From: a virus
DNA: 38,839 bases
UHGV virus genome: UHGV-1367571
Reading direction: 5' to 3' (one strand)
Both the position numbers and the translations under genes were made by a program. Of this stretch, positions 5,212 through 21,279 are shown in pieces. Within the stretch, counting starts at the first letter, position 1; each line of letters starts with the position of its first letter. The notes under the pieces were generated by a model, which was not told where the DNA came from, made no database searches, and saw only the letters and a list, made by a program, of their open reading frames with translations.

Positions 5212-5233
5212 TTCTTTCTTTTAGTATATATTA

Positions 5234-5309: not shown

Positions 5310-6620
5310 TTACTCAAATTCTTTTAAAGTTTCCAATGTTTTTTCCAATCGGTTCGCTTTTTGTTCTAATTGGAACCCTTGGTTTTCAACTCGTTCGGCT
5401 TTTTCGTATAGATCAGCTGAGGCAGCTCGCAACTCCTTAATTTTATCCTCGATTTTTTCCCGAGTTGTTTTTTCTGGTTCACAGTGTTCTACTGGTTCTT
5501 TAATGTCTGGTTTAGGCACATATTCAAATTGACGTCTTGCCATTAAATATTGGCTACTATCAGATAGACTAATGTTAACATTTCCATTATCAAAAACTTT
5601 AGTCACTCTATAAATATCACCTACTTTGATACCCTGTAAATGATCATCGTATAATAACTGAGTTACTTTTATATACTTATCTTTATTACTTAATTTTGTG
5701 AAATAGTCGACTTCACTAATATATTTAAACTGTACTTTAGTTAGTAGGTAATTTGTATAATCATCATTAAGGAATACTCTTACATCTCCATCTGAATCTG
5801 TTGAGCTTACTTCAAATACATCGCCGATTGACACTCCTTTTTCGACATCACCATATAATAACTCTGTTACTTCCACATATTCTTTTCTCACTTCTTTTTC
5901 CTCCTCTTTTTTGTCAACTAGTTTAAACTGTGCCATACAGATACCATTCAAATATAAGGCGATCTCGTCAGATTTTCTAATACTGTCAGTGTCGCTTTTA
6001 ATAACTAACTCACCTGTAAAATATCTAGTTACAATGTACTTTTTACCTTTAGTCCAGTGAGTAAAACCACCTGTGTTAGTGCATTCTAGTACCATTCCCT
6101 CTTTAATGTCGAACTTAGTGTACTCATCTTTTACGATCTCCAAACTCACATCATAATTATCGATAGGATTGTTTAAATAATGTAAAATATCATTAATATC
6201 TCTGGTTGTTTTACTATCTGTTGAAAGATAAAGATCGCCCTGCTTATTTTTACATACTACATAAACTTTACCTGTAGTCCAAAAACTAAATTCACCATCA
6301 TCTACACAACGTAATTTCATGCCTTCTTTAATATCGTTTTTAGTGTATTTCACTTCTTTTTCCTCCTCTACAATTTCAAGGTGTGCATTACAAACATTTT
6401 TATTATTTAATCTCATTAGAATACCAGTGATATGAGATCGTTCGTTATCATCGCTAGCAATATATAGCGCCCCTTCATTATCTGATTTAACCTCGTAAAT
6501 TTTTCCCACAGTCCACCAATGATAACCTCTAGTATTAACACACCGTAATTTCATGCCCTCTTTAATGTCTTTTTCAGTATATTCCATTATCTTTTCCCTC
6601 CATCTATTAATGTCAAACAT
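5310..6620 (-). CDS. internal-repeat protein (436 aa): three ~75-aa repeats with DIKEGMKLRCV..W.T.GK.Y.V core, two ~58-aa repeats, and a C-terminal coiled coil
   Basis: The repeats are visible in the translation. RBS GGTGGAG. No family recognised. Confidence 0.65.
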   Translation of the reverse strand: MFDINRWREKIMEYTEKDIKEGMKLRCVNTRGYHWWTVGKIYEVKSDNEGALYIASDDNERSHITGILMRLNNKNVCNAHLEIVEEEKEVKYTKNDIKEGMKLRCVDDGEFSFWTTGKVYVVCKNKQGDLYLSTDSKTTRDINDILHYLNNPIDNYDVSLEIVKDEYTKFDIKEGMVLECTNTGGFTHWTKGKKYIVTRYFTGELVIKSDTDSIRKSDEIALYLNGICMAQFKLVDKKEEEKEVRKEYVEVTELLYGDVEKGVSIGDVFEVSSTDSDGDVRVFLNDDYTNYLLTKVQFKYISEVDYFTKLSNKDKYIKVTQLLYDDHLQGIKVGDIYRVTKVFDNGNVNISLSDSSQYLMARRQFEYVPKPDIKEPVEHCEPEKTTREKIEDKIKELRAASADLYEKAERVENQGFQLEQKANRLEKTLETLKEFE

Positions 6621-6663
6621 ACTCCACCTAGCCCCAGTCCCCAGATAATACCTAATATAAATA

Positions 6664-7014
6664 TCACTTATTAAGATCCTCCTTAATCCTTAATAGTTGC
6701 ATAAACTGATCGTACTCAATGGATACCTCATCTTGATTATTGTAACATGTTCTAACTAGTTCGTCAAGTAAATTTTTTACATGTTCTTTAGGATCTGTAG
6801 TAGCTGTAATGTCAACTAATTCCACCTCGACTAATCCGCTTTCTTCAATATATCTAATTAACTCATCTATAGTTTCAGTACACCCTACTTGGTCGCCATC
6901 ATCATCAATTATATAACGTGAAAATGAAAATCTACCTACCTCGATCGGATAAATTTTATCTTCTGTGAAACACCTACTACCTGATCTAGTTACCTCTAAT
7001 CCATACTTTTTCAT
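6664..7014 (-). CDS. hypothetical acidic protein (116 aa)
   Basis: ORF. ATGA coupling with 7011..7172. Confidence 0.55.
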   Translation of the reverse strand: MKKYGLEVTRSGSRCFTEDKIYPIEVGRFSFSRYIIDDDGDQVGCTETIDELIRYIEESGLVEVELVDITATTDPKEHVKNLLDELVRTCYNNQDEVSIEYDQFMQLLRIKEDLNK

Positions 7015-7172
7015 TCCTGTACCTCCTTAACAAGTCTATTTAAAATAGTGTTTAGTTCTGTATACTCTACGATTGTCAATGCGGCGTAACCAGTTTCTAA
7101 TTGCTCCTCTGCGTTTAAAGTAAATACCATGTTAGTATGGCGGATCATATCTAACTTTCTATCATTATTCAT
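7011..7172 (-). CDS. hypothetical protein (53 aa), missed by the ORF track
   Basis: RBS TAAGGAGGTAGAG. The stop TGA overlaps the ATG of 6664..7014. Translation checked codon by codon. Confidence 0.55.
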   Translation of the reverse strand: MNNDRKLDMIRHTNMVFTLNAEEQLETGYAALTIVEYTELNTILNRLVKEVQE

Positions 7173-7173
7173 A

Positions 7174-7377
7174 TTACTCTACCTCCTTAATTGATATAAT
7201 CATGTTTACATTTTGCATTTTTTGGGCGATCTCCCACGCCTCATCTTGATCACTAGCATAAATGTAACCTGTATCATAACGATCGAACCGATCCATAAAT
7301 ACTAATTTATACTGAGCGATCTCATGAGGTCTACTTGCTATATAATGAAACATCACATCGTTAATTCTATCAGCCAA
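7174..7377 (-). CDS. hypothetical protein (67 aa)
   Basis: ORF. Confidence 0.5.
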   Translation of the reverse strand: MADRINDVMFHYIASRPHEIAQYKLVFMDRFDRYDTGYIYASDQDEAWEIAQKMQNVNMIISIKEVE

Positions 7378-7393
7378 TTACTCACCTTCCTTC

Positions 7394-7615
7394 TTACTCG
7401 TTAATAAATGCTAATTCGTCCAACATATCATCTAAAACAGCATATTCTGCTTGTGAGATAAGTTTTTGATCTGCTGCGCCGTCAACAATTCGATCTAGTG
7501 TGTTAACTGTTCCACCGACATAAGTATTAAGGGTACTCTTTTCTGTACCGTTGTTCATCATTCCCATAATATTTTCCTGAGCTGCAATAACCTGACCTTT
7601 TAATAATTCAAACAT
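7394..7615 (-). CDS. hypothetical protein (73 aa)
   Basis: ORF with RBS AAGAAGGAAGGTGAG. Promoter at 7648..7676. Confidence 0.55.
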   Translation of the reverse strand: MFELLKGQVIAAQENIMGMMNNGTEKSTLNTYVGGTVNTLDRIVDGAADQKLISQAEYAVLDDMLDELAFINE

Positions 7616-7647
7616 TTTAAATTCCTTCTTTCTTTTATTATATATTA

Positions 7648-7676
7648 ATTATAATCCAAAGGGCTGAACTTATCAA
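7648..7676 (-). promoter_or_regulatory. early promoter TTGATA-17-TATAAT with a second TTGACT box upstream
   Basis: Shares the -10 and UTR module with the 1354 and 5234 promoters. Confidence 0.6.
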
Positions 7677-7702
7677 CCCTTTTAGTCAACTTTTTTTTAA
7701 TT

Positions 7703-7858
7703 TTATTTTTTCATTGATTCCCAGTCTTTGCGAGTGATAACTTGACCGTTTACTTTTCTTTTTGCAACTTCTACGGCTTCCATAAATGTTTCACGTTCTG
7801 CATAACCTCGTTTAGTTTCACTATTGATAATAATGTATTGTTTTTTAGTTTTTGTCAT
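7703..7858 (-). CDS. hypothetical basic protein (51 aa), missed by the ORF track
   Basis: RBS GAGGAAG. Promoter 7892..7920 lies upstream. This replaces the spurious plus-strand ORF 7742..7975. Confidence 0.55.
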   Translation of the reverse strand: MTKTKKQYIIINSETKRGYAERETFMEAVEVAKRKVNGQVITRKDWESMKK

Positions 7859-7891
7859 GTTTATTACTTCCTCTCTTTATCTTATGAACTA

Positions 7892-7920
7892 AGTATACCA
7901 TGGTTATTTCAGGTTGTCAA
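7892..7920 (-). promoter_or_regulatory. early promoter TTGACA-17-TGgTATACT with a tandem TTGACA box
   Basis: Consensus on the minus strand. Confidence 0.65.
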
Positions 7921-7949
7921 CTGTTTTTGTCAATTATTTTTAAACTTTT

Positions 7950-8147
7950 TCAATGGCGTTCTAAAAATCGATTAAGTGACTCTTTCATTTTATCAATTTG
8001 TATCTGCCGTTCATCTTTTGAAATATTTTCATTAAATAGCCATGTTTTGAACCAACCTTGTTTTGATACATGAACTAAAATGCTGCCTGTTCGTAATGTT
8101 TCGATCTCAATTGTGAAACCATCTTCCACATGTCTTTTAATTTTCAT
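7950..8147 (-). CDS. hypothetical protein (65 aa)
   Basis: ORF with RBS AAGGAGGGAAA. Confidence 0.55.
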   Translation of the reverse strand: MKIKRHVEDGFTIEIETLRTGSILVHVSKQGWFKTWLFNENISKDERQIQIDKMKESLNRFLERH

Positions 8148-8158
8148 TATTTCCCTCC

Positions 8159-8329
8159 TTAAAAGTTGACAATTGTATAATCGTAAAATCTTGGGTTGTG
8201 TCGATCTGTGCAGCTACCGCTAACAATGTGGATCTCAGGGACTTGTTTTAATAACTCTACTGTTTCATCGCTTAGGTTCAGTTCGTAGTTTCTTTTCTTT
8301 TTGTGGTCGATAATTTTTACTTTATTCAT
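8159..8329 (-). CDS. hypothetical protein (56 aa), missed by the ORF track
   Basis: RBS GAGGAAG. Promoter at 8362..8390. Confidence 0.5.
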   Translation of the reverse strand: MNKVKIIDHKKKRNYELNLSDETVELLKQVPEIHIVSGSCTDRHNPRFYDYTIVNF

Positions 8330-8361
8330 GTAATTTCTTCCTCTCTTTATCTTATGTACTT

Positions 8362-8390
8362 AGTATAACCTTAGGGGTCGAACTTGTCAA
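8362..8390 (-). promoter_or_regulatory. early promoter TTGACA-17-TATACT (exact copy of the 1621 module)
   Basis: Sequence identical to 1621..1655. Confidence 0.7.
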
Positions 8391-8414
8391 CCCCTTTTGC
8401 CAACTTTTTGTAAA

Positions 8415-8624
8415 TTATTTTTGTAAATAAACATTTAATTGAACTGAATTGTTTTCGGTTGGTTCAATAGATACCACTTTTTTATGAAAGTATTCCAGTA
8501 CAAATTGTGTGGGTAGGTAACCACTTCTGTACATGAAACTAAAATCATATGAGCGAAAATCATCGCAGTAAATTCTAACCTCAACGCCGTACTCAATAAC
8601 CTCTAATAATTGTTTAAATGTCAT
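8415..8624 (-). CDS. hypothetical protein (69 aa)
   Basis: ORF with RBS GAGAGGAAG. Promoter at 8657..8685. Confidence 0.55.
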   Translation of the reverse strand: MTFKQLLEVIEYGVEVRIYCDDFRSYDFSFMYRSGYLPTQFVLEYFHKKVVSIEPTENNSVQLNVYLQK

Positions 8625-8656
8625 GTAATTTCTTCCTCTCTCTATTTGATATATTA

Positions 8657-8685
8657 ATAATAATCTATAAAAAGAAAAAAGTCAA
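8657..8685 (-). promoter_or_regulatory. early promoter TTGACT-17-TATTAT with a tandem TTGACT box
   Basis: Minus-strand consensus. Confidence 0.55.
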
Positions 8686-8714
8686 CTGTTTTAGTCAACT
8701 TTTTTCAAATTATT

Positions 8715-10472
8715 TTAAAATGTTATTTCTTCATCGGTTAGCAGGTCACTATTTTCTTTTGAAATACCATAGAATACTCGTTTTTTACCTACGTTGGTCG
8801 TTTTTTCCAGATCGCCATTGTTTAATTTATTCCGAATCATTTTGAGATCCAACTCGTTATAAACCAGTTTTCTAAATGAAGCATGTTTCAAAATTTTAGC
8901 CGAGTTATTTTCTGAAAACCATTCTTTAAAGTCCTCATACAGATCGCCACGGTTCACATAATCCTCTTCATTATTAGTAATAGTATAATCTGACTCTAAT
9001 AAAAACTGCTTTACTGGATTATTTTCAGCTTGCCAATCGCCTTTTAATCTAATAGCTATATCTGATTGATACAATGGATCTTGTGTAAATTGTCCGTTTT
9101 TCTCATCATACCATTTATTTCTAGCTGTTTGGATTGCTAAATAGATTAGTTTTCTAAGGTCTGTATCATCGGATCCCAATAATTTTTCTCGGTAGTCGTA
9201 AATTTCTAGTGATTTTTTTTGGTTTTCGGGATCTCTCATATTGTTCTGAAATACTAGCAAATCTAATCGGCGCTCTGTTGCTCCATCTCGTGAGCTTAAT
9301 TGTGGTAATTGGTTAGCGTTTAGCCAAAAATTCGCCTTATTTTGAAACATCATTCCATCACTATATAAGTTCCGTGCTTTTAATTGTGCTTGTCCTGTGA
9401 TTAATTTTTTAAGTGTTTCAATGTTTTCCAGATAGTTGGTTTTTACATCATCATCAAAATTGACTAGGGCGCCAACTAAAGGCATTAATTTTGTATCTGG
9501 GGTTTGGCTTGTAATATCTGCTAACGATACCTCAGCCCACAATGATTTACCTATTGTTTCAAAGCAACGTTTAACGACTAATTGCACCTCTGATTTTCCG
9601 TTACCGTGATCGCTAATGCCTTGTAAAGTGTTCCCTACCGAAACCAAAGCCGATTGAGAAAGACTTGCCTTATTAAAGAATGATAGTCCTAAGAACTCTA
9701 AAAAGGTTCGTTTACTGTCACCTAATAAGAACTCTAACCATTCCTCAAAGGGTTGTTTTTGTTTAATGTCGTATTCTATTGGTGTGTGTTTCAAACGTCC
9801 TAATACATAATCATCACCTTGGGGGGCTTGAAAGCTATTTGTATGAATATTAAATGTTTTTGTAAACGGAATTAAGTATTCTTTTTTACCAATAAAAGGG
9901 TTTTCCTCAGGTGTCACTTGGTTTACTTGTCGTGTGATTGCAGTAATCAACTCGTTTTGTTGCTTAATTGGAATGGTTACCGTTCTTAATAGTGGGTTTA
10001 CAATCGATCCAGTTACAACTTTCTCGGCGGCATCTTTATCTATTTTCCAGATCTTATTTACCTCGTCAAAAATAACCATCTCTATTTCATTGTTACTCAT
10101 TAAGTGACCTTGTTTGGCTATTAAGGATCCTAATAAAGAAACATCATCTATATAAGGGGTATATTCACCTGTTTTTTTATTCTCTCTATATTGTATTACC
10201 TCTGTTTGTCTTAATTCTTTAAATAATTTTTCAGGATAATCTGGTTCTTTAAATGATAAAATACTTGTTTCAAGATTATTTCTTAATTGTTCTTGTTTTT
10301 CTCTATCTAAGTCACCTAGTTCGATTAGTTGTTCTGGAATAGGTTCGGTATTTGGTGTAATCTCCTTTAGTTTTTCGTTTCTGAGGTTTTCTCTAAACTT
10401 TTCCATTTCCTCGGCGCTCATCACTTGGTTATCCGTTGTTAATTCATCTAGTGGGTTTTCAAATTGTTCCAT
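8715..10472 (-). CDS. SF3 helicase, D5/P4-family primase-helicase C-terminal-like protein (585 aa)
   Basis: Walker A GNGKSEV and Walker-B-like NFDDD within a D5_C-like region, recognised from memory. RBS AGGAGGA. Confidence 0.7.
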   Translation of the reverse strand: MEQFENPLDELTTDNQVMSAEEMEKFRENLRNEKLKEITPNTEPIPEQLIELGDLDREKQEQLRNNLETSILSFKEPDYPEKLFKELRQTEVIQYRENKKTGEYTPYIDDVSLLGSLIAKQGHLMSNNEIEMVIFDEVNKIWKIDKDAAEKVVTGSIVNPLLRTVTIPIKQQNELITAITRQVNQVTPEENPFIGKKEYLIPFTKTFNIHTNSFQAPQGDDYVLGRLKHTPIEYDIKQKQPFEEWLEFLLGDSKRTFLEFLGLSFFNKASLSQSALVSVGNTLQGISDHGNGKSEVQLVVKRCFETIGKSLWAEVSLADITSQTPDTKLMPLVGALVNFDDDVKTNYLENIETLKKLITGQAQLKARNLYSDGMMFQNKANFWLNANQLPQLSSRDGATERRLDLLVFQNNMRDPENQKKSLEIYDYREKLLGSDDTDLRKLIYLAIQTARNKWYDEKNGQFTQDPLYQSDIAIRLKGDWQAENNPVKQFLLESDYTITNNEEDYVNRGDLYEDFKEWFSENNSAKILKHASFRKLVYNELDLKMIRNKLNNGDLEKTTNVGKKRVFYGISKENSDLLTDEEITF

Positions 10473-10486
10473 GTGTTACATTCCTC

Positions 10487-10702
10487 CTATTTATCTAATT
10501 TCATATTAATAACTCTAAAATCTGGTTGTTCATACTCACTTATTTTAAAGCCTTTTGACATTCCTTTTTCCAAGTGTCTGTAAAATGTTCGTTTTGATAC
10601 GTTTAATAATTCGCAAGCTTTTTCAACTGTGACAACTAGATCACCTGTATATTTTTCGCCATCTTGGTTTAGAGGACATTCTTCAATTAAGTAAAATTTC
10701 AT
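10487..10702 (-). CDS. small HTH DNA-binding protein, putative early regulator (71 aa)
   Basis: LLNVSKRTFYRHLEKG helix-turn-helix. First gene after the divergent control region. Confidence 0.6.
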   Translation of the reverse strand: MKFYLIEECPLNQDGEKYTGDLVVTVEKACELLNVSKRTFYRHLEKGMSKGFKISEYEQPDFRVINMKLDK

Positions 10703-10734
10703 TATAAAACTTCCTTTCTTTTCGTTATGATCTA

Positions 10735-10764
10735 ACTATATCACATGTCAAAGTAAAATGTCAA
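10735..10764 (-). promoter_or_regulatory. promoter TTGACA-18-TGaTATAGT. The -35 is one of four tandem TTGACA boxes across 10746..10792.
   Basis: Extended -10. Boxes spaced 13, 15 and 13 bp apart. Confidence 0.55.
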
Positions 10765-10861
10765 GTTTTTTCGTGTCAATTTATTTTGTCAATTATTTTG
10801 GCATTCTATTTTGACATGGAATTATTGAAATTTGGCTAAAAAAGGCATTTTCCCCTATTTT

Positions 10862-11160
10862 TTTTGGGAGATCCCAATTTTATTTCAATTTTTGGGAAGT
10901 ACCAAACCGTTGGGGCTGTAGGCTTAAATACCATTCTCCCAATTTCTCTATTTATTTATATAAATAATAATATATATTAAATAAGCTACTATAGTGGCAT
11001 AGTGTATTGACACAAAACCTATATAAACTATAGAAAAAAATAAAAAAGTTATTTTGGGAGCTATTTTTTGCGCCGAATCGCTCAATCCATTGGTATTAAA
11101 GGGTTTATAGGCTCCCAAAAAGTTGGGAAAACTGGTATTTCTCCCAAAAACTCCCAAAAA
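10862..11160. repeat. array of at least eight TTGGGAG/CTCCCAA 7-9-bp repeats in both orientations, including the palindrome TTGGGA-ga-TCCCAA at 10865..10878, flanking an AT-rich core at 10941..11050
   Basis: Copies at 10862, 10891, 10934, 11051, 11110, 11122, 11141 and 11150. Confidence 0.6.
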
Positions 11161-11179
11161 GCAATCGAATAACCATTTA

Positions 11180-11188
11180 TGTTATAAT
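11180..11188 (+). promoter_or_regulatory. extended -10 promoter TGtTATAAT for the rightward operon
   Basis: Sits 20 bp downstream of the last CTCCCAAAA repeat. Confidence 0.5.
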
Positions 11189-11210
11189 TACTATATAAGG
11201 TGGTGAAAAT

Positions 11211-11558
11211 ATGAAGGAAAATAAATATAGTGAGAAAGTAACCAAGTATCTGAAAGAAACTGGTGCTTTAGTAGACAATAATACGGCAAGTATGTATGCT
11301 AGGGTTGGTAGATCGGATCTAACTGCTCTATATAAAGGTTATTACTTGGCTTTAGAGTTAAAAACTGGATCTTATCAACCAACGGACTTACAGATCAGGT
11401 ATTTACAGAAAGTTAGGGATAATGGTGGCATTGGACTTATTTTAAGAGATAACCTTGACTTAATTAAAAAAGTAGTGTATGCTATAGACAATGGACTACC
11501 TATAGAACAGCCTAAATTACCAAAGTTGAGTAACGATATTGGTTTAATATTCGATTAA
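11211..11558 (+). CDS. VRR-NUC domain nuclease (PD-(D/E)xK fold)
   Basis: GRSDL..ALELK..Q pattern. Typical partner of phage SNF2 helicases. Confidence 0.6.
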   Translation: MKENKYSEKVTKYLKETGALVDNNTASMYARVGRSDLTALYKGYYLALELKTGSYQPTDLQIRYLQKVRDNGGIGLILRDNLDLIKKVVYAIDNGLPIEQPKLPKLSNDIGLIFD

Positions 11559-11657
11559 ATCGATTTTAAGCCACTTTTAAGCTCATTCAGTATTATTCAG
11601 GTCTATTTATATAGGTAAGATATAAAACAGCTTAGAAAGCAAATCAGGAGGGTTTAA

Positions 11658-12962
11658 ATGAGTATTAAATTATTTGATCATCAAATCGAGCAAGTTAAAG
11701 AAGGGATTAAAGGTAAAAACTTTAATCAAAGTGAAGTGGGAACTGGTAAGACATTCGTAGGACTGACATTATTTAAAGAAAGTAAGTATAAAAAACTTTT
11801 AGTATTATGCTTGGCTGCTAAAGTTACCGATTTTGTTTCTGACGGTGAAAAAGTAGGATTAGAAATAACCGCTTTAAATAAAGGAACGACTAAAAATAAA
11901 GTATTATTGGAAGGCAAATCTGCAGTATCGATTAGTTTTGAGAGCAGTTGGCGACTAACTGACCTTAATAAGTGGGTGGATCAGGATACAATGATCTTAA
12001 TTGACGAATCACACAAGGTCAAAAGTACAACATCTAAAGTAGGTATGTTTATTAATAAGTTATCCAGAAAAGCAGGGTATAGTTATCTAATGACGGCAAG
12101 CCCAATTAGTAATGGTCGTTACGAGGATCTTTGGAATCAGTTGTTTATTGCAGGAATCTATACCGAATCATATAAGAAATTTAAAGATCGCTATTGTATT
12201 GAAGAACTTCAAGAAATGAAAGTGAGAGGTCAAACGAAATACTTTAATCAGATTGTTGGTTATAAAAATACCGATGAATTATTAGGACTATTAAAAGATC
12301 ATTCGGTTTATAAAGCTAGAGATATTGAGGATCACTTATTACCAGAAGATATTTTCTACTATACTAAAAAACCAACCATGTATAATAAGTTAGTCAAGAA
12401 TAGGATCCTAGAGTTACCTAATGGCGAGATCGTTGAGTATGATAATCTACCTAAGCTAAGACATGCTCTATTACAATTGTGTAGTGGTGTATTAGGTGAG
12501 ATTGATAAACCTTTACGTAAAGACAAATTAGAACGTACTGCACAGATCCTAGACGAAAACAAAGGCAATCGAGTCGTTATCTTTTATAATTACAATAGTG
12601 AGAAAGCAGCACTCATTAATCTACTAACTGACATCGGTCGGGTTTGGTCTGTCTATAATGGTGAGTCACATAACTTAGAGGAGTTTAAGAACGATCAAGA
12701 AGGAGTAGTGCTAGCACAGTATAAGTCTGCCTCAACTGGAATTAATGATTTTGTAATTGCTCATGTAACTATTTTCTTTGGATCATGTGACAGTAGTACA
12801 ACTTATATTCAAGCCAAAGGAAGAACGAACAGACATGGTCAAACTAAGAAACCTATCTACTATCATCTAATCGCTGAGAAGTCGGTAGAGTATAAAGTAT
12901 TCCATGAGTATGTACAGCAAGGCAAAGACATTACAGATAAGATCATAGAGTCCCTATTATAA
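11658..12962 (+). CDS. SNF2/DEAD-like superfamily-2 helicase
   Basis: Motif I GTGKT, motif II DESH, motif VI QAKGRTNRHGQ. Confidence 0.85.
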   Translation: MSIKLFDHQIEQVKEGIKGKNFNQSEVGTGKTFVGLTLFKESKYKKLLVLCLAAKVTDFVSDGEKVGLEITALNKGTTKNKVLLEGKSAVSISFESSWRLTDLNKWVDQDTMILIDESHKVKSTTSKVGMFINKLSRKAGYSYLMTASPISNGRYEDLWNQLFIAGIYTESYKKFKDRYCIEELQEMKVRGQTKYFNQIVGYKNTDELLGLLKDHSVYKARDIEDHLLPEDIFYYTKKPTMYNKLVKNRILELPNGEIVEYDNLPKLRHALLQLCSGVLGEIDKPLRKDKLERTAQILDENKGNRVVIFYNYNSEKAALINLLTDIGRVWSVYNGESHNLEEFKNDQEGVVLAQYKSASTGINDFVIAHVTIFFGSCDSSTTYIQAKGRTNRHGQTKKPIYYHLIAEKSVEYKVFHEYVQQGKDITDKIIESLL

Positions 12963-13342
12963 TTAGTAGGGTATCATGATCGGGGTATTGCTATACTAAG
13001 TAGGGGTAGTGATATAATAGTAGGGCTATTGAGTGGGGTACCACATATAGAGATAGGGCTATGTAGATAGGGGGTAGGGGAGTAAGGGGTAGGCTATAAT
13101 GGTAAGGTGTTGACAAGTAATAGTTAATATGTTAGTGTGATAGTATCTTAATGATTAGTGTAAATGATTATAGTAACTAATATATAATGAAGGTGATACT
13201 GGTTGTTAAGGTACTACAATACATAAGGATCCAATACAATCAATGCAACTAAAGATAATTAATGCAACCTAAATAAAAGTAAGGGGATCATAATATATTT
13301 TAGTAAGTGGATCGCAACATAAAAGGTAGCAACATTATTCTA

Positions 13343-13388
13343 GGGTAGGGGTATCTGGCAGGGGGTAGGGGTAGGGTGGTAGGGTAGG
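13343..13388 (+). repeat. G-quadruplex-forming tract GGG-TA-GGGG-N9-GGGGG-TA-GGGG-TA-GGG-TGGTA-GGG-TAGG (TAGGG-type repeats)
   Basis: At least six G3+ runs with 2-9-nt loops. Similar tracts at 13046..13093 and 12969..13006. Confidence 0.6.
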
Positions 13389-13767
13389 CAGTAGGTCAAC
13401 CAACTAAACACGAACGATAGTAATATAAATTTAAAAAATTATTCGTAAAAAATAAAAAATTAATTTAAAATAAAAAATAAAAAAATAGGAAAAAAATTTA
13501 ATTAAATAACAAAAAAATTTTTCAGAAGTCCAAAAATAATTTCAGAAATTTTATCCCCGAGTCCCCCCGCTTTCAAAAAAATTCAAGTACCCCCGACTCA
13601 GATTGAACCGCCCCCCATATTATCTTCACACAATTCCTCAAAATCTATTTTGAATTTCAATTTTACTACGACAGGTGGAGTACTTAGAAAATATAGTTTA
13701 TAAATAATCAACGTAACAAAGAGAATAACATAACATAACACGTTAATAATAATCAGGAGGTTTTTAA

Positions 13768-14217
13768 ATGTATATAGCGAACCCGAATGGAAAAATCATT
13801 TTTGAAAAAAGACATATCTTACTAGCAAACCCGAACGAGCTAGAGTTAACTGGTTGTTTAGACAGGATCAACGAGTTAGGAATTGAGTATATGAACTGGT
13901 TAATCTTAAACGATCAAGCAGACTACTTTTATAAATCACCAATCTGGTATAAGACAGTACGACCCGAGATATTGGAACGAGATAAGCATGAGTGCCAACT
14001 ATGCAAGCTACAGGGAAAACTAACAGTAGTCCAAAAAAGAGGATACGTCCACCATATCGCAGAGTTGAAAGAGTTCCCTCACGTGGCACTAAACTATAAC
14101 AATTTAATTACATTGTGTTACCATTGCCATGAGGTTACTCACGAAAGAGTTTTTAATATTAACAATATTCAGACTATTGATACTTTCGATAATTTTGATA
14201 GCTCGGAAACGTGGTAG
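13768..14217 (+). CDS. HNH endonuclease (terminase-associated)
   Basis: CQLC..HHIAE..N..CYHCHEVTH HNH/zinc-finger motif. RBS AGGAGG. Confidence 0.85.
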   Translation: MYIANPNGKIIFEKRHILLANPNELELTGCLDRINELGIEYMNWLILNDQADYFYKSPIWYKTVRPEILERDKHECQLCKLQGKLTVVQKRGYVHHIAELKEFPHVALNYNNLITLCYHCHEVTHERVFNINNIQTIDTFDNFDSSETW

Positions 14218-14278
14218 TTTGTAAACGCCTTCCTAAATGTGATATAATAGAAATAGATATTATAAAGGAGGCGTTTAT

Positions 14279-14620
14279 ATGAGTACACTCAAAGTACTAA
14301 ATGGAGATATTGAAGTTAGTAAAGAAGAGTTTCAAAAAGAAATGGAAAATATTTTAAGATCCAATGATAAACTTAATCCAGTTACGCAAACTATTGTTTA
14401 TAAAATAATTGACTTATACGAAACAGCAAAAGCAGCCAAAGAGGAAGTAAATGCCTTAGGTGTTTTATTAGATCAACCAATGGCGAACGGATTAAATAAA
14501 TTAGTTCCCAATCCTGCGGTACAGATCCAATCTGCAGCAATTGCAGGCATGAGTAAACTGATCGCTCAGGTCGAATTAGATACATTACAAGCGATGGAGG
14601 GCGATGATGATGACATTTAA
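14279..14620 (+). CDS. putative terminase small subunit (P27-like size, 113 aa)
   Basis: Position between the HNH gene and the large terminase. Acidic C-terminus. RBS AAGGAGG. Confidence 0.55.
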   Translation: MSTLKVLNGDIEVSKEEFQKEMENILRSNDKLNPVTQTIVYKIIDLYETAKAAKEEVNALGVLLDQPMANGLNKLVPNPAVQIQSAAIAGMSKLIAQVELDTLQAMEGDDDDI

Positions 14621-14918
14621 TTATCCCGAAACAATGGTTTTAAATGGAACTGAATATAATGTTAATTATTTAATGACGGATCCCGAGGCTCATAGTATGA
14701 CCAAGAACAATTTTATCCAACAAATATATACTAAATATGTGGCTATTCGGATCGCAGTAGGGGGAAATAGATGTGCTAAAATGTCCTTAGAACAGGTAAA
14801 AAATGAGTTAAAAACTGGAAAATATGACTCAGATTTAAGAAATATTCTAAAATTAAGCGAGAAAGATGTGGAAACTGTGCTATATATCGCAGAAAACCAC
14901 ATAAGTATAATTAGATGA
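14604..14918 (+). CDS. hypothetical protein (104 aa)
   Basis: RBS GGAGGG. ATGA overlap with the large terminase start. Confidence 0.45.
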   Translation: MMMTFNYPETMVLNGTEYNVNYLMTDPEAHSMTKNNFIQQIYTKYVAIRIAVGGNRCAKMSLEQVKNELKTGKYDSDLRNILKLSEKDVETVLYIAENHISIIR

Positions 14919-16654
14919 GTATGTATACACATAAAGTACCTTGGTTACCTAAAGAACACACCGTTATCGATGGATATGAGGACATGGCTAATTTTTACAT
15001 GTTTAAAGATTACGCCGATCTAATCGAGAGCGGTCAACAGCACGTAAGCGAGGACATACACAAGCTATTTACCTATTTATACAAGGTAGTATTAACATTA
15101 GATATTTACTTAGATGTAACTGCAACTGAGGCAGCATATCAAACCCCGAAAAAATATTTTCCACATGATCTTTTCCCTTGGGAGCGCTTTCTAATACCGT
15201 TCATTTTCGGGTTGCGTTTCAAGTCGGACGACACACTGGTATTTAATGAGTACTTTTTATATATGGCACGTGGTGCAGGAAAAAACTACTTTATGAGTTG
15301 GATCATTTTTGCATTAATTACAAATATCAACGGAATCAAAAAATATAATGTAGCTATTTCTAGCGCTAGTGAGCGACAAGCTAAAACATCATATATTGAT
15401 ATTCGAGAAGTAATTAAAGGGAACCCAAAACTTAAAAAGAACTTTCCAACGAGTACTCAGAAAGAAATGAAGTCGGCTAGTACTAACTCAGACTTTAGAT
15501 ACTTATCATCTAACGGTAACACAATGGACGGACAACGGTTAGGGGCTGCTTATCTTGATGAAATTCATGCCATTGTAGATTATGCCAGTTTGCAGGTTAT
15601 GAGGTCAAGTCTAGGTAAGATCCCAGATAAAAGATTATTCATCACGTCAACCGATGGATATACCAGAGGTAAAGTATTAGATGATTATAAAGACAAGTCG
15701 GACGATGTTCTAAATGGTATCCGAGGCGTTCATTTTGATGTAGCCAACCCTAATCATTCTAGGTTATTGCCGTTTATTCATCGAATCGATAACGAGAACG
15801 AGGCACGAACTGAAATAGGTTGGCAAAAAGCAAACCCTAGTATTTTATATAATGCTAACTTAATGCAGACATACAGGGAAGAAGTTGCCGAGATCGATGT
15901 GAACCCAGAATTAAATATTGAGTTCCATCTCAAACGCTTAAATTTTGTTAAAGAGGATACTCGTTTCAGGATCGCCAAAGTATCACAAATAGCAGCAACA
16001 GCGCAACGAGATATTACTTACTATAGGGATACTTTAGGAATGAGGATAGTTGGGGGAACAGTTGACTACTCAACCAGTCGAGATCTAACTACGGTCGGTA
16101 TTGTTGGTAGGTATGAGAATGAGTTCTATTTATTACAGCATTCGTTTATTACTCACGAACAACGACACCTAGGACAGATCAACGAAACATTACTACAAGA
16201 GGCTGAGGCTAGAAATGAGTTGACCGTTGTCAATGGTGAGGTTATCAGTGAGCAGTATGTAGTAAAATGGTTCTTGGAACAATTGGAACAAGGTTGGATA
16301 ATCGATACTATTTATATTGACCAATACAAATCTGCAGTATTAGGAAAAGCATTAGAGGACTCAGGTTTCATCGTTAAGCGGAACCCTACGAATATGAAAT
16401 ATGAAACTATGGTAAGTCCGTTAATCGATAGAATGTTTGCAAATGGTGAAATTTTCGCAGGAGATAGCCCTCTATTCCGTTGGGCGTGTAATAACGTTTA
16501 TAAAGAGGTGTTAAGTCGTGGGGTTCGTTATGATAAAATCGATCCTATTCGCAGAAAAACAGATCCGTTTTCAAGTTTCTTAGCTTATCTAATTGGAACA
16601 GTTGACGTACAAGAAACTCAATTGAGTACTAACTTTACAGGTATGGTAGTTTAA
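14915..16654 (+). CDS. terL: terminase large subunit
   Basis: 579 aa. Walker-A-like ARGAGKN. Nuclease-domain acidic residues in the C-terminal half. Confidence 0.9.
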   Translation: MSMYTHKVPWLPKEHTVIDGYEDMANFYMFKDYADLIESGQQHVSEDIHKLFTYLYKVVLTLDIYLDVTATEAAYQTPKKYFPHDLFPWERFLIPFIFGLRFKSDDTLVFNEYFLYMARGAGKNYFMSWIIFALITNINGIKKYNVAISSASERQAKTSYIDIREVIKGNPKLKKNFPTSTQKEMKSASTNSDFRYLSSNGNTMDGQRLGAAYLDEIHAIVDYASLQVMRSSLGKIPDKRLFITSTDGYTRGKVLDDYKDKSDDVLNGIRGVHFDVANPNHSRLLPFIHRIDNENEARTEIGWQKANPSILYNANLMQTYREEVAEIDVNPELNIEFHLKRLNFVKEDTRFRIAKVSQIAATAQRDITYYRDTLGMRIVGGTVDYSTSRDLTTVGIVGRYENEFYLLQHSFITHEQRHLGQINETLLQEAEARNELTVVNGEVISEQYVVKWFLEQLEQGWIIDTIYIDQYKSAVLGKALEDSGFIVKRNPTNMKYETMVSPLIDRMFANGEIFAGDSPLFRWACNNVYKEVLSRGVRYDKIDPIRRKTDPFSSFLAYLIGTVDVQETQLSTNFTGMVV

Positions 16655-16716
16655 TATTACCATACTTGTTTTTTGATTAATAGATATGATATAATATAAC
16701 CAAAGGAGGTTTTAAC

Positions 16717-17952
16717 GTGGGATTATTAGATTTTTTTAAAGGTTCTAGGGTAGATCGGGGAGTAACCGACCTAGAGGCAATGTGTCAAGACCTAGAGCAA
16801 TCATTAACCTATCGAAAGCTAGCATTAGAAATTGCAATAGATCTAGTCGGAAATAGTGTAGCTAGTGTCGATTGGAAACAATTCGAGAAAGAACAACTAG
16901 TAACGAAACAAATTTCGTATATGCTAAATGTAGCCCCGAATGAGTTAGAATCGAGTAGCGAATTTTTCAAACACTACGTTAAGCGATTGTTATATGATGG
17001 TGAAGTTCTTATAGTTCCAGATCGTACAACAGGACATTTATACGTAGCTGAATCATTCACTAGCGAAACGGTATCAAGATCCAAACGAGAGTTTTATGAC
17101 ATTTCATATTATGATGTTAGTAAGATGGATACTGAACGATATAACCAAGATGAAGTAATTCATATCGAATATAATAAAGACAATATTACTCGATTTATGA
17201 ACAGCTTTTTAAATGAGTATGAATTACTAGTTAAGTCTGCGGTAAGTTCGTATAGATCCAACAAAACTCGGCGATTCACTCTTTCTAGTAATATGTTCCA
17301 ATCGCAAACAAGCGAAACACAGCAGGAAATGAACGACATGTTCACAAGACAATTGTCTAAATTCGCCTCTAGCGACACAACAGCAAGTGTTTATGCAAAA
17401 GGTACTAACTGGGATATTCAAGATATGAGTGATAAACAGATTGAAAGTGCTAAAGATAGTCGGGATCTTATTAACGATGTTTTCGCAGTCGTAGCACAGA
17501 CTTATCATATTCCAGTACAAATGATTTTAACAGGTATCACTGGAACAGGTGCAGGAATCACAGATAAGGTAGTAGAAAATTACTTACTAAATATCGTGTA
17601 TCCAGTAGTAGCATTATTTCAAGAGGGCTTTAATCAATACAATTACTCTATTGCTCAATATAAAGGCGGAAATAGGATAGTTGCAGATAAGTCAAAAGTA
17701 CGCCTAGCAAACATGCAAACATTAGGTACATTTATCGCCTCAGTTTTCCCTACTGGTGCTTTATCATTAAACGATATTGTTACCGAGTATTTACAACTAC
17801 CACCATTACCAGATGAGATCGGCGATACACGTGTAATAACCAAGAACTATGCAACAATTGAGGACTTTAAAAACGGATTAACCGCAACAGTCCCACCAGT
17901 TCAAAACGGCGAAACAACAGCTGTTACAAATAACGATAAAGGAGATAACTAA
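16717..17952 (+). CDS. portal protein
   Basis: 411 aa. GTG start with RBS AAGGAGG, directly after terL. Confidence 0.75.
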   Translation: MGLLDFFKGSRVDRGVTDLEAMCQDLEQSLTYRKLALEIAIDLVGNSVASVDWKQFEKEQLVTKQISYMLNVAPNELESSSEFFKHYVKRLLYDGEVLIVPDRTTGHLYVAESFTSETVSRSKREFYDISYYDVSKMDTERYNQDEVIHIEYNKDNITRFMNSFLNEYELLVKSAVSSYRSNKTRRFTLSSNMFQSQTSETQQEMNDMFTRQLSKFASSDTTASVYAKGTNWDIQDMSDKQIESAKDSRDLINDVFAVVAQTYHIPVQMILTGITGTGAGITDKVVENYLLNIVYPVVALFQEGFNQYNYSIAQYKGGNRIVADKSKVRLANMQTLGTFIASVFPTGALSLNDIVTEYLQLPPLPDEIGDTRVITKNYATIEDFKNGLTATVPPVQNGETTAVTNNDKGDN

Positions 17953-17954
17953 CT

Positions 17955-18623
17955 ATGGCACATGTATTACATTTAAACGGTTTTGTAGGTCAGATCATGG
18001 ATCTATGGACTGATGAGGTTATGAGCGCCACATATAACGGTATGAAGAAAAACCTAGAGGGACATTCTGGGGAGGATATTGAACTTCATATTAATTCAAA
18101 AGGTGGCGATGTTTTTGAGGGTATGGCAATGCTAGGACTCTTAAAAGAACAGACAGGCGAAAAGGTAGCCCTAGTTCAAGGGATCTGCGCAAGCGCTGCC
18201 ACATTACCACTATTTGCAATGGATAAGATCAAGGCACAAGAAACAAGTATGTTTTTATTCCATAAGTCGGCTACGATGGCTTTCGGACATTCCGAGGACT
18301 TAGAAAAGCAAGCGCAGGAACTCAAAACAATTGATAAAGTGGTACTTGACTTATACAAAAAGAAATTTAAAGGATCGGATGAGGAATTAACAGCGTTATT
18401 AGAGGCTGATAAATTGATTAGTGCTAAAGAGGCATTAGAGTATGGTTTAATTGATGAAATTATTCCAGATCTACCTGATAAAGATCCAGAAAACGAACCA
18501 GATCCAGATGAGGATAACGATCCTAGTGTTGAGGACGTGAGCAACGAAAGCGCAACAATGGCAAGCGAAAATGCGGATCGTGTCTTAATGTGGGCTAACG
18601 TATTGAACGGGTTTAAAGCGTAA
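17955..18623 (+). CDS. ClpP-like (S14) prohead protease with acidic scaffold-like tail
   Basis: INSKGGDVFEG, GICASAA and FHKSAT motifs resembling the ClpP catalytic regions. Confidence 0.75.
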   Translation: MAHVLHLNGFVGQIMDLWTDEVMSATYNGMKKNLEGHSGEDIELHINSKGGDVFEGMAMLGLLKEQTGEKVALVQGICASAATLPLFAMDKIKAQETSMFLFHKSATMAFGHSEDLEKQAQELKTIDKVVLDLYKKKFKGSDEELTALLEADKLISAKEALEYGLIDEIIPDLPDKDPENEPDPDEDNDPSVEDVSNESATMASENADRVLMWANVLNGFKA

Positions 18624-18624
18624 C

Positions 18625-18654
18625 TTGCTTTTTACCTTTTCGATATGCTATAAT
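18625..18654 (+). promoter_or_regulatory. promoter TTGCTT-18-TGcTATAAT
   Basis: Same TAACTTGCTTTT -35 module as at 21715. Confidence 0.5.
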
Positions 18655-18697
18655 TATTTTAGTAATAAAAATAAAACAAAACAAAGGAGTTTATAAT

Positions 18698-19810
18698 ATG
18701 TCAAAATTAGATGAGCAAACTAAGTTACAAGATGTCTTAATGAATAAAGAGGCTACTAATGAACAAATCACTTCTGCTATGGAAGCGTTTACATTATCAG
18801 TACAAGATCGAGTGTTAGCTAAAGCAAAAGAAGTTAGTAACGATCAAGCGGTACAAGCTGCATTAGGCGGTATTCAAATGGACTCCCACGAACGTAAATT
18901 CATTATGGAATTAATCGGAACAGCAGGCGAGGACGTAGGTAAAAACGCAGCGGCAACAGTGCCACCAACTACCATCAACCGTGTAATGGATAACCTAGTT
19001 AAGAACCACGATTTAATTAAAGCAGTTGATGTTATTAACGGTGGTTTGACAACGGAGTTTATTTACTCAATCGGTGTTAATACTGCTTTCTGGGGTGCTT
19101 TATGTGCTGAGGTTAAAGAGTTAGCTGATAAAGGGTTCCGTAAAATGTCAATCGGTCAATTGAAATTAAGTGCATATATTCCAGTATGTAAGGCATTTAT
19201 CGATTTAAATAGTCCAGAGTGGTTATTAAACTATGTCGTTACTATTTTATCTGAATCTATCGCTATTGCATTAGAACAAGCTATCGTAGATGGTACTGGT
19301 AAAGAAATGCCTATCGGAATGCGCCGTTCTTTAGTAAATGCTAGTGCAGGTGAGCAAACTCCATTGGATCCAACTGAGATCGCTGATTTTTCACCTGAGG
19401 AATTAGGTAAGTTAATGGCTATGTTAACTAAACCAACTATTGACACAACGAACAGCATTGTTTTAGATCGTACAGTAAACCCTGCGGACATTATGATCTT
19501 AATGAACCCAACTACTTACTGGACTAAGTTCTATCCTAATTATACAGTGCAAAACGCTTTAGGTCAATACGTATCAGGTTTAGCTTTACCATTCCAAATC
19601 AAACAATCTACGGCAGTTCCAGAAGATGAATTTATCATCGGAAACCCTAAAGATTACTTGTTTGTATTAGGTAAAGGCGCTACCTTAGGTTTCTCTGACG
19701 AACACCGTTATATCCAAGATGAACGTGTTTACATGAGCAAAATGTACGGTAACGGAACACCTAAAGGAGAAAACTTATTCATTCGTGCAACTTTAAAAGC
19801 ACAAGCATAA
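18698..19810 (+). CDS. major capsid protein
   Basis: 370 aa following the protease. RBS AAAGGAG. Confidence 0.75.
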   Translation: MSKLDEQTKLQDVLMNKEATNEQITSAMEAFTLSVQDRVLAKAKEVSNDQAVQAALGGIQMDSHERKFIMELIGTAGEDVGKNAAATVPPTTINRVMDNLVKNHDLIKAVDVINGGLTTEFIYSIGVNTAFWGALCAEVKELADKGFRKMSIGQLKLSAYIPVCKAFIDLNSPEWLLNYVVTILSESIAIALEQAIVDGTGKEMPIGMRRSLVNASAGEQTPLDPTEIADFSPEELGKLMAMLTKPTIDTTNSIVLDRTVNPADIMILMNPTTYWTKFYPNYTVQNALGQYVSGLALPFQIKQSTAVPEDEFIIGNPKDYLFVLGKGATLGFSDEHRYIQDERVYMSKMYGNGTPKGENLFIRATLKAQA

Positions 19811-19816
19811 TAGAAT

Positions 19817-19841
19817 AGGGGGCTAACAAGCTCCCTTTTTT
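19817..19841 (+). terminator. rho-independent terminator after the capsid gene
   Basis: AGGGGGCT/AGCTCCCT stem followed by T6. Confidence 0.6.
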
Positions 19842-19871
19842 ATTTAAATAAATTATAAAGGAGGCAATAAT

Positions 19872-20075
19872 ATGCCACGAGTTAATATGGGAAAATCGTT
19901 TATTGTATCAACCGATGATATTCAAGGTGGCGGTTTAGATACCGCAGCAGTACAAGCTTTAATTGATAAAGCAATTGTTAACTTAGCAACTAAGACAGAG
20001 CTATCTACAAAGGCGAATGCTACCGATGTATATACTAAGACAGAGGCTGACGCAAAATTTCAACCTAAAGCATAA
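19872..20075 (+). CDS. small structural protein (67 aa)
   Basis: RBS AAAGGAGG. Flanked by duplicated terminator-promoter cassettes. Confidence 0.5.
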   Translation: MPRVNMGKSFIVSTDDIQGGGLDTAAVQALIDKAIVNLATKTELSTKANATDVYTKTEADAKFQPKA

Positions 20076-20141
20076 TAGTAAGGGGGCGCTTGTAATGAGT
20101 GTCCCTTTTGTGCTATAATAAATTATAAAGGAGGTAACACT

Positions 20142-20453
20142 ATGAACGATGAAATTATTAAAGCATTGCTAGAGGCTGTTAAAGATGAATCTGGTGTTTT
20201 CTGGAATGAGGACGATCCACGGCTTACTCGTTATATTAAAGGTGCTTATAAATGGGCTATCCATTTTAATGATAATGTAGATATTGAGATCACCGAGGAC
20301 TCTTTAGCGTTTGAGTTAATTACTCAGCGAGCGAGATACCAGTATAATAATGCCTTAGATTTATTCGAGGATAATTATCAACAATTATTAAACAAGTTTA
20401 TCGTAACACTAGCACTTGAAAAGGAGGCGGTAATAAATGCCACTACCTCATGA
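20142..20453 (+). CDS. head-tail connector (gp6-like)
   Basis: Size, position and overall similarity to the family, from memory. Confidence 0.55.
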   Translation: MNDEIIKALLEAVKDESGVFWNEDDPRLTRYIKGAYKWAIHFNDNVDIEITEDSLAFELITQRARYQYNNALDLFEDNYQQLLNKFIVTLALEKEAVINATTS

Positions 20454-20820
20454 AAAACCGAACTTACACCGAGCTAGAGTTAATGGTTATTTACAACTAG
20501 GAAACCAAAAACCAGTTTATAATGAGAATCGTAGGTTAATCGGTAAAAAGTTCGTTCCTAAATATGGCAGGGTACCTTTTTTAGCAGCTTCATTAACTGG
20601 GGCTGATCTATCTTTATTAGGGAACGTAACTATATCTCAGATAAGTAAGAAGGTAGATATTGCATATAGTGCAAAAATTGAAAGCGAGGCAGAAAACACA
20701 TTACTAGTTTTATATAATGGAGTTGTATATGATATTGTTTCAACTGATCGTTATCAAGATCGATTATATTTATACCTAGTAACAACGGACGATAAGGGAG
20801 GAAACATTGATGGCGAATAA
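20437..20820 (+). CDS. head closure or head-tail adaptor protein
   Basis: Gene order and size. Confidence 0.5.
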   Translation: MPLPHEKPNLHRARVNGYLQLGNQKPVYNENRRLIGKKFVPKYGRVPFLAASLTGADLSLLGNVTISQISKKVDIAYSAKIESEAENTLLVLYNGVVYDIVSTDRYQDRLYLYLVTTDDKGGNIDGE

Positions 20821-21268: not shown

Positions 21269-21279
21269 GGAGGGATAAA

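Follow-up and report, generated by a model that had tools for sequence, protein, structure and literature searches.

Between the SNF2-type helicase gene and the HNH endonuclease and terminase genes of the virus genome UHGV-1367571 (38,839 nt, referred to here as the window) lies a region at positions 12963-13767 that we investigated as a possible packaging site. We found a physical DNA end at the right edge of its zone of C-runs, with the top strand cut between 13618 and 13619, right after GAACCGCCCCCCAT. Both the assignment of a cohesive-end site (cos) and the position of this cut are, in our assessment, highly probable, and the region is likely to be the cos of an Efquatrovirus-like siphophage, virulent in lifestyle, whose HNH, small terminase (TerS) and large terminase (TerL) package genomes of unit length. 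A preliminary description, made from the sequence without database searches, had already proposed a cos or packaging site upstream of HNH-TerS-TerL, and this earlier cos reading was supported herein, both by contig and adapter ends at 13617-13619 and by homology of the core layout to that of TerL relatives.

The end was mapped in public assemblies, in which a TerL 100% identical to that of the window was present in at least 45 blocks. Ten places were examined, four of which had contigs that read through the region, and six of which had contigs that started in the C-run zone (13590-13619). Specifically, these starts were at 13590 (L128), 13608 (L131), 13617 (L132, a 40,630-bp scaffold), 13618 (L133) and 13619, the latter in both L129 (SRR26349344) and L130 (ERR4682437). 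These last two came from different studies and had a TruSeq adapter fused to the same base, with the Read-2 arm in one and the Read-1 arm in the other. In both junctions ...GCTCTTCCGATCT was joined to ATTATCTTCAC, which begins at 13619 in the window, and the phage side read ATTATCTTCACAC. Across 148 loci scanned for adapters, TruSeq or Nextera sequence was detected only in L129 and L130. Because an adapter junction at one base needs many inserts that end there, the junctions indicate a physical terminus, and because the first base of the right arm corresponds, after end repair, to the top-strand nick for either overhang polarity, the cut was placed between T13618 and A13619. Ends at comparable positions were also observed in relatives. 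In a lineage with a TerL that is 49% identical, a 41,576-bp SPAdes contig (L141) started in the last C-run, and a contig from another sample (L140) read through, while in a sister clade (TerL 33-42% identical) the IMG/VR contigs L298 and L317 started directly after the equivalent last GC-run. Among the members of this sister clade are Enterococcus phage 4995_1, many IMG/VR prophages, Geobacillus PK5.2 and Staphylococcus phiSLT/P630-type phages.

The sequence immediately left of the cut has the layout of a cos core. Four C-runs were present, starting at 13555, 13563, 13590 and 13611, and the core (13555-13618, about 65 bp) is composed of a C-run, TTTCAAAAAAATTC, a C-run, GAAC-CG, a C-run and the cut, reading CCCCCCGCTTTCAAAAAAATTC ... 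CCCCC ... GAAC-CG-CCCCCC-AT up to the cut. In the sister clade, the cos is a compact, ~100-bp noncoding stretch between HNH and TerS, and reads CCCCCC-GGTCAAAAAATTTC ... GGGGG ... (G)AAACGG(G)AGGGGGC. The left element of the window matches the CCCCCC-GGTCAAAAAATTTC of Geobacillus PK5.2, the IMG/VR prophages and Staphylococcus P630, with which it also has in common the overall order of C-run, TCAAAAAA(T)TTC, run, (G)AAC-xG, run and end, with similar distances between these elements. The best-conserved C-run across relatives was GAACCGCCCCCC (13605-13616), and the terminal element GAACCGCCCCCCAT is the probable cohesive-end sequence. In comparison to the closest isolate, the A40 phage introduced below, the longest invariant intergenic stretches lay in the A-tract block, in CCCCGAsTCCCCCCGC and in (T)GAACCGCCCCCCA. 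Additionally, 13585-13635 was free of variant positions within the lineage, at a coverage of 4-10 variant sequences, although this invariance lends weak support, because an equally long invariant run exists in the first array of G-motifs. No inverted repeat centered on the cut was recovered in a repeat scan of 12900-13800, and none is visible in GATTGAACCGCCCCCCAT and the ATTATC that follows it across the cut.

The genes that follow the region are those expected of a cos-type packaging machine, in the order HNH, Terminase_4 TerS, a 104-amino-acid (aa) open reading frame (ORF), TerL and portal. An adjacent HNH together with a matching TerS and TerL was located directly downstream (PF01844, PF05119, PF03354+PF20441), and the nearest named TerL relatives in tblastn searches were HNH-associated cos phages, with 102 records from Paenibacillus larvae phages among the hits. 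In PMC12967558, an HNH gene adjacent to terminase genes is described as part of cos-type packaging machines, and HNH and TerL are proposed to nick one strand each (Kala 2014, Quiles-Puchalt 2014 via PMC12967558). In HK97, the HNH protein gp74 is a required terminase partner at a 3′-overhang cos (Kala 2014 via PMC12967558, PMC9611059); there the gene order is HNH, cos, TerS, and the likeness to the window is one of machinery.

Two groups of phages provided closer comparisons. The published alignment of the cos of phiSLT, phi12 and SaPIbov5 shows a C-run, an A/T tract (taaaatgttttttcg) and then taccggcgggggcc (Carpena 2016, PMC5052747 supplement). Like the window, these elements have HNH, a small and a large terminase, with the TerL of the window being 33% identical to the phiSLT type, and the order of their core is the same: a C-run, a short A/T tract, '(A)ACCG' and a GC homopolymer-like run by the end. 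However, the staphylococcal cos is located between hnh and terS, whereas in the window it precedes hnh; on the coding strand, the middle and terminal runs consist of G in the phi12 type and of C in the window; and the staphylococcal cos, at ~100 bp, is without the G-arrays, 250-bp spacer and 140-bp A-tract block of the window. In P. larvae phages of the Fern, Harrison and Vegas clusters, a 9-nt 3′ overhang, CGACTGCCC, is immediately followed by base 1 (PMC6070908). This overhang lies 50 bp upstream of terS, in contrast to the placement of the window cos upstream of HNH, and no long repeat-bearing flank such as that of the window is described for these phages (PMC6070908). If the phage of the window behaves likewise, its overhang would have 3′ polarity and consist of the last C-run, up to 13618. 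What distinguishes the site, then, would be that a phi12-type core has been relocated to a position before HNH, that two of its three GC runs lie on the other strand, and that it is joined to a long, conserved flank of G-arrays and A-tracts.

This flank was retained across considerable evolutionary distance. Enterococcus cecorum phage vB_CECAV_A40 (PV173149.1; L001, hereafter A40) was the sole closely related isolate, its TerL and helicase being 76% and 78% identical, respectively, and a limited literature search turned up no publication on it. A40 has the same synteny and the same succession of array, spacer, array, A-tracts and C-runs (830 bp; record positions 1873-2707), which is unannotated in a record that starts at an arbitrary point and not at the DNA end. 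The region was also present in contigs L134 (TerL 72%) and L140 (TerL 49%), such that the order of G-array, spacer, G-array, A-rich block and C-runs was kept in four lineages (window, A40-like, L134 and L140; TerL 49-76%). In all four, same-strand copies of (T)AGGGG-TA(T) begin just after the helicase stop codon at a spacing of ~17 or 35 bp, the second motif block ends in GGTAGGT and is followed by the A-rich block and the C-runs, and the distance between the arrays is 244-256 bp, with a spacer sequence that is not conserved. The spacer contains promoter-like sites in three lineages, namely TTGACA-17-TGt-TAGTGT in the window, TTGCAT-17-TGcTATAAT at the same place in A40-like phages, and TTGACA-18-TATAAT just before the second array in L134; as matches to a consensus, these are putative promoters. 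Outside of these lineages, no array of this size was found in sister-clade loci, and in Efquatrovirus phages, the endonuclease-helicase module of which is 47-50% identical, genes directly follow the helicase with no array, indicating that the arrays travel with the packaging lineage and not with the replication module. Scans of IMG/VR and JGI metagenomes with a 14-mer (TGAACCGCCCCCCA) and an 18-mer (CCCCGASTCCCCCCGCYT) returned almost only chance high-GC matches, and no relative was among the matches listed in the metagenome scan, while a search of genome contigs with the HNH gave distant Clostridia matches only.

Within the window, the flank proved more structured than had been described. Across 12963-13767, the order is G-array 1, AT-rich spacer, G-array 2, A-tract block and four C-runs, ahead of HNH-TerS-TerL (Table 1). 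The region was correctly said to contain no ORF, in that its only ORFs, of 41 and 47 aa on the minus strand, are mechanical ones, and gaps of 4, 5 and 11 nt in the alignment to A40 show that these are not conserved genes; Rfam (E<=1) and tRNA scans of the region gave no match. In array 1, copies are spaced ~13-21 bp apart inside a super-period of 33-35 bp. Runs of at least four G reach their genome maximum here, with 10 of the 66 in the window located inside these 805 bp, and the GGGGTA-type motif forms no other cluster in the genome. A C-run-rich stretch at ~37.3-38.1 kb, considered as a second array, was rejected, as it consists of small coding minus-strand ORFs. The claimed zone of G-runs was thus enriched as stated, although it is not continuous, being split into two blocks (12969-13100 and 13343-13398) with ~245 bp of AT-rich sequence between them, and its characterization as almost C-free was overstated (9.2% C over 12963-13410 versus 17.8% genome-wide). 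The strings that had been quoted were all in place: TAGGGCTAT twice (13021 and 13054), GGGGGTAGGGGTAGGGTGGTAGGG (13361-13384), CCCCGAGTCCCCCC (13555-13568) and CCCCCGACTCAG (13590-13601). The last two are the C-run elements that had been named; of the four runs that exist, the best-conserved one, at the cut site, had not been listed. The inverted GAGTC and GACTC cores of these two elements are present in the window and unconserved, since in A40 the first element contains GACTC and the second contains neither core.

Array 2 also contains a canonical G-quadruplex (G4) motif (four tracts of at least three G, loops of 1-7 nt) at 13361-13384, the sole one on either strand in 38.8 kb. By its sequence it is a putative G4, and it was kept in all variants of the window lineage, in A40-like loci and in L134, and was absent from L140. 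For the A-tract block, base composition (60% A) and eight A5-7 tracts agreed with the preliminary description, and the proposed ~11-bp phasing was weak: three lineages had an AA periodicity peak at 11.0 bp (p 0.06-0.09 for the window, 0.08 for A40 and 0.02 for L134), and the peak of L140 was at 6.5 bp. Hence, A-richness is conserved and phased bending is weakly supported. RNA folded from array 2 through the C-runs was as stable as shuffled sequences (z of -0.5 in the window and -0.3 in A40), and a long-range hairpin between the G-block and the C-runs was dropped, as there was no folding stability beyond composition. For the window, we also rejected a reading of the C-runs as inverted G-motif copies: in the window, A40 and L134, within-lineage local alignment scores did not exceed cross-lineage scores or run-preserving shuffles (p 0.5-0.9), and in L140 alone do GGGCTTGTGAAAT of array 1 and ATTTCACAAGCCC of the C-run zone, separated by ~640 bp, form an exact and significant inverted repeat of 13 nt (p<0.002).

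Table 1. Features of the region between the helicase and large terminase genes (window coordinates).
Feature	Position	Strand	Remarks
SNF2-type helicase gene	11658-12962	+	Stop codon at 12962 forms left border of region
G-motif array 1	12963-13100 (G-runs 12969-13100)	+	Nine same-strand (T)AGGG(G)TA(T) copies
AT-rich spacer	13101-13342	+	Length conserved, sequence not
Promoter-like site in spacer	TTGACA 13110-13115, 17 bp, TGt-TAGTGT 13133-13138	+	Consensus match only
G-motif array 2	13343-13398	+	Dense GGGGTA units at intervals of 5-9 bp; GTAGGTCA at its end
A-tract block	13411-13550	+	60% A, ~12% G+C, eight A5-7 tracts
Putative cos core, left element	13555-13584	+	CCCCGAGTCCCCCCGCTTTCAAAAAAATTC; C-runs 1 and 2, then A7 tract; conserved in A40
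Putative cos core, middle element	13590-13604	+	CCCCCGACTCAGATT; C-run 3; position of middle G-run in sister-clade cos
Putative cos core, terminal element	13605-13618	+	GAACCGCCCCCCAT; contains 13-mer invariant between window and A40
Right-of-cut leader to HNH start	13619-13767	+	Blocks conserved with A40
TCTTCACACAATT	13623-13635	+	Leader element
Palindrome TTGAATTTCAA	13650-13660		Leader element
Promoter-like ACGACA-18-TATAGT	13668-13697	+	Promoter scan
ACACGTTAAT	13738-13747	+	Leader element
HNH endonuclease gene, 149 aa	13768-14217	+	Pfam PF01844, E 3.5e-7; phrog_119
Small terminase gene (Terminase_4 / P27 family), 113 aa	14279-14620	+	Pfam PF05119, E 7.8e-7; phrog_5110
Conserved 104-aa ORF between TerS and TerL	14604-14918	+	phrog_5942, family of unknown function
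Large terminase gene, 579 aa	14915-16654	+	Pfam TerL_ATPase + TerL_nuclease (PF03354+PF20441)

Under the cos reading, TerS would recognize the site, and HNH and the TerL nuclease would nick one strand each in a staggered manner, leaving a GC-rich 3′ overhang of ~10-18 nt that corresponds to the last C-run. After injection the ends would re-anneal, and transcripts from the helicase side or the spacer promoter could then cross the sealed cos into the HNH, terminase and head genes, as in lambda, where late transcription crosses the sealed cos. The left 600 bp may serve as an accessory nucleoprotein scaffold, on which oligomeric TerS or another phage protein would assemble and be brought to the cut site, with the A-rich, partly phased and possibly bent block acting as a linker between arrays and core. 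This arrangement would resemble the lambda cosQ-cosN-cosB, with its IHF bend, and the SPP1 pacL, in which a nicking site is flanked by small-terminase repeats that are brought together by a bend. We consider a scaffold role of the arrays for TerS, whose possible binding to the TAGGG repeats had been raised in the preliminary description, only tentatively, as somewhat short of an even chance. The likeness to lambda and SPP1 is a functional analogy only. Lambda has 5′ overhangs of 12 nt, a partly symmetric cosN, no HNH, and a cosB on the side of the terminase genes, whereas the arrays of the window are on the opposite, helicase side, the cut lacks a surrounding dyad, and bending, if any, would come from the A-tracts themselves. 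The lambda-type combination of a symmetric nick site with repeats on the terminase side is therefore not what the window presents, and by lambda convention the left flank would be at the end packaged last and would take the place of cosQ, not that of cosB.

Several observations weigh against this interpretation. One of the two ends was mapped, and none of the left-arm contigs from the window lineage terminates at the cut; contigs from helicase look-ups, including cluster members, yielded no clean left terminus, with candidate positions for the opposite end being the start of L131 (13608) and the end of L144 (equivalent to ~13600). Rather, left-arm ends were scattered, at 12981 (L143) and 13388 (L269, the far end of a 39.4-kb scaffold), while A40-like left arms ended in array 2 (L146), in the spacer (L147) and 18 nt left of the equivalent cut (L144), from which it follows that the intergenic region is also a general hotspot of assembly breaks. 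The L128 start at 13590 is probably the far side of a coverage gap over the A-tracts and not a true end. In the unrelated IMG/VR contig L301, a Nextera adapter was fused at a non-terminal site, so that adapter fusion alone is no proof, and the weight of the end call comes from two libraries that agree to the base together with two starts 1-2 nt away. As for the flank, its arrays are separated from the terminase genes by the cut, the reverse of the lambda arrangement with cosB, and they may be unneeded for packaging, given that the sister clade packages with a ~100-bp cos without them. Moreover, the proposed relationship of C-runs to inverted G-motifs failed the shuffle test in three of four lineages, A-tract phasing was marginal and absent in L140, and both the cohesiveness of the ends and their 3′ overhang polarity are inferred from related phages.

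Because the sister clade is without the flank, two alternatives to a terminase scaffold stay live for the left 600 bp. In one, cos would consist of only the last ~70-100 bp, and the arrays, spacer promoter and A-rich block would be a replication origin, either in the form of iterons beside an easily melted AT-rich stretch, or through transcription from the spacer promoter into a G-rich non-template strand, with the resulting G4/R-loop priming synthesis beside the AT-rich block, for which ColE1 and mitochondrial CSBII offer precedents. Such an origin concerns the left part alone and is compatible with the mapped cut. It would account for same-strand repeats 17-35 bp apart beside a block of 10-13% G+C, at the end of the replication genes (endonuclease, helicase), for a promoter-like site between the arrays in three lineages, for the placement of the genome's only canonical G4 motif downstream of that site, on the non-template strand and conserved in three lineages, and for packaging without arrays in the sister clade. 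We nonetheless regard an origin as unlikely: Efquatrovirus phages have a homologous endonuclease-helicase-primase module but lack a noncoding array of this kind downstream of the helicase, L140 retains the arrays and A-rich block without the G4 motif, no initiator-type protein was linked to the motif, and the motif is clustered nowhere else in the genome. In the other, the left 600 bp would be the control region or long leader of a late operon comprising HNH, terminase and structural genes, in which a regulator bound to the GGGGTA arrays loops or occludes the spacer promoter. The conserved distance between arrays (244-256 bp) with promoter-like sites between them in three lineages, the lack of a terminator-like site between the helicase stop and the region in our scan, and the late genes that follow on the same strand are all consistent with this. 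However, these promoters are consensus matches only, from a scan that reported 12 sites versus 7.4 expected, and their position in the spacer varies by lineage; other promoter-like sites are nearer to HNH and TerS (13668-13697 and 14219-14248), no candidate regulator was identified, and no RNA family or stable leader structure was found, making this control region rather unlikely. It is quite improbable, too, that the GGGGTA arrays and the sole G4 motif, all of which belong to the strand with its 3′ end at the right terminus of the chromosome, are a telomere-like end module and not terminase sites. If so, the module could be a G4/R-loop element, fired by the spacer promoter, that primes replication beside cos, or it could be a Chi-like element or G4 cap that stops host exonucleases of the AddAB/RexAB type, which would read the motif in the orientation found if they entered from that end. 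Such a cap would guard the first-ejected end, given a packaging start at the terminase-gene side.

The remaining explanations address the end itself. Position 13619 could be the single initiating cut of a headful series at a pac site, with genomes that are terminally redundant and partly permuted, and, because only one end was mapped, the preference for cos over pac rests on membership of TerL and HNH in their families. A rightward-reading end is all that a pac start would give, and many assemblies circularize. Yet TerL groups with HNH-associated cos phages (phi12/phiSLT-type, Paenibacillus 3′-cos and Geobacillus PK5.2), an HNH beside the terminase is reported for cos-type machines (PMC12967558), the core resembles an experimentally used cos, an A40-like left-arm contig ends 18 nt before the equivalent cut, and genome-length contigs start at the site, all of which render pac very improbable. 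A direct terminal repeat was likewise unsupported, as no left-arm contig reaches right of 13619. Finally, there might be no physical end at all, if DNA that is G4-prone, 10% GC and homopolymeric simply breaks assemblies and the two adapter junctions coincide by chance. Other contig ends do exist, at 12981, 13388 and 13590 and, in relatives, within the spacer or array 2, and L301 has its adapter at a non-terminal site. Against such an artefact, which we consider scarcely credible, stand the identical base in two libraries that differ in study and adapter arm, the two further starts 1-2 nt off, the break of the 49%-TerL relative in its own last C-run, the breaks of sister-clade contigs right after the equivalent run, and the fact that the position falls at the best-conserved element and agrees with the cos layout seen in relatives.

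Other features of the assemblies and of the leader were noted. Untrimmed adapters at L129:1-29 and L130:1-25 (TruSeq; Logan), and at L301:1-39 (Nextera; IMG/VR), represent contamination in public records. Within 13388-13590, the A-tract block was missing from some near-full-length assemblies, with one scaffold ending at 13388 and the contig of another sample starting at 13590, which suggests coverage dropout in 10% G+C DNA beside the G4 motif. Around the cut and leader, the density of TTCAA/TTGAA pentamers reached its genome maximum, for a motif picked after viewing the sequence. TTCACA-type repeats were expanded right of the cut in L140 and L142, and the window has one copy only, at 13625. 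In these two lineages, TTCACAAGC repeats were located in and right of the C-run zone (L140:2400-2760 and L142:100-300, with a 21-bp spacing in L142), alongside a repeated TCATATCAACGTTT motif.

Further observations pertained to the neighboring genes. The 104-aa ORF, which overlaps both TerS and TerL, was found in every relative examined, has phrog_5942 as its sole match, and may be a fourth component of the packaging machine. In the gap between HNH and TerS (14218-14278), the equivalent of which is occupied by cos in the sister clade, there is a strong promoter-like sequence (TTGTAA-18-TGaTATAAT, 14219-14248) flanked by an inverted repeat, TAAACGCC / GGCGTTTA. The 3′ arm of this repeat overlaps the TerS ribosome-binding site, and read-through transcripts could therefore mask TerS translation.

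At the genome level, the phage is a mosaic. Its replication genes (263-12962 and 31921-38685) are Efquatrovirus-like and include Prim-Pol, a DUF5906 primase-helicase, an endonuclease, the SNF2 helicase, a metallo-beta-lactamase and DUF1351; the helicase, the one gene compared in the mosaic, was 47-50% identical to that of Enterococcus Efquatrovirus phages. Within 13768-31857, by contrast, the HNH/TerS/TerL module groups with phi12/phiSLT, Paenibacillus and Geobacillus cos phages. No integrase was found among the ORFs scanned, and ORFs of 779 aa (31921-34260, minus strand) and 436 aa (5310-6620, minus strand) were without a credible Pfam family. A 508-bp intergenic region (10703-11210), which separates a minus-strand, 71-aa HTH_17-like ORF from the divergent, plus-strand endonuclease gene, is probably an early/middle promoter switch. 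The window is a circular permutation, 55 nt shorter, of public SPAdes contigs (ERZ784805, ERZ783974), its helicase is in NCBI nr as DAI62568.1 ('MAG TPA: Caudoviricetes sp.'), and the phage is present in many public assemblies.

Collectively, these results provide a base-level genome start (13619) for a phage present in many public metagenome assemblies, whose nearest isolate infects Enterococcus cecorum, and this start aids annotation, the orientation of genomes, and the engineering of transducing particles or cos-based vectors for the group. They also illustrate how the termini of virion DNA can be located from public assemblies alone, through contig ends and adapters left untrimmed, with no need for the reads. 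The flank, with its two arrays ~250 bp apart, G4 motif and A-rich block, is absent from the sister clade, and is thus a tractable test case for the role of extra cos DNA, be it in terminase assembly, termination, replication priming or end protection.

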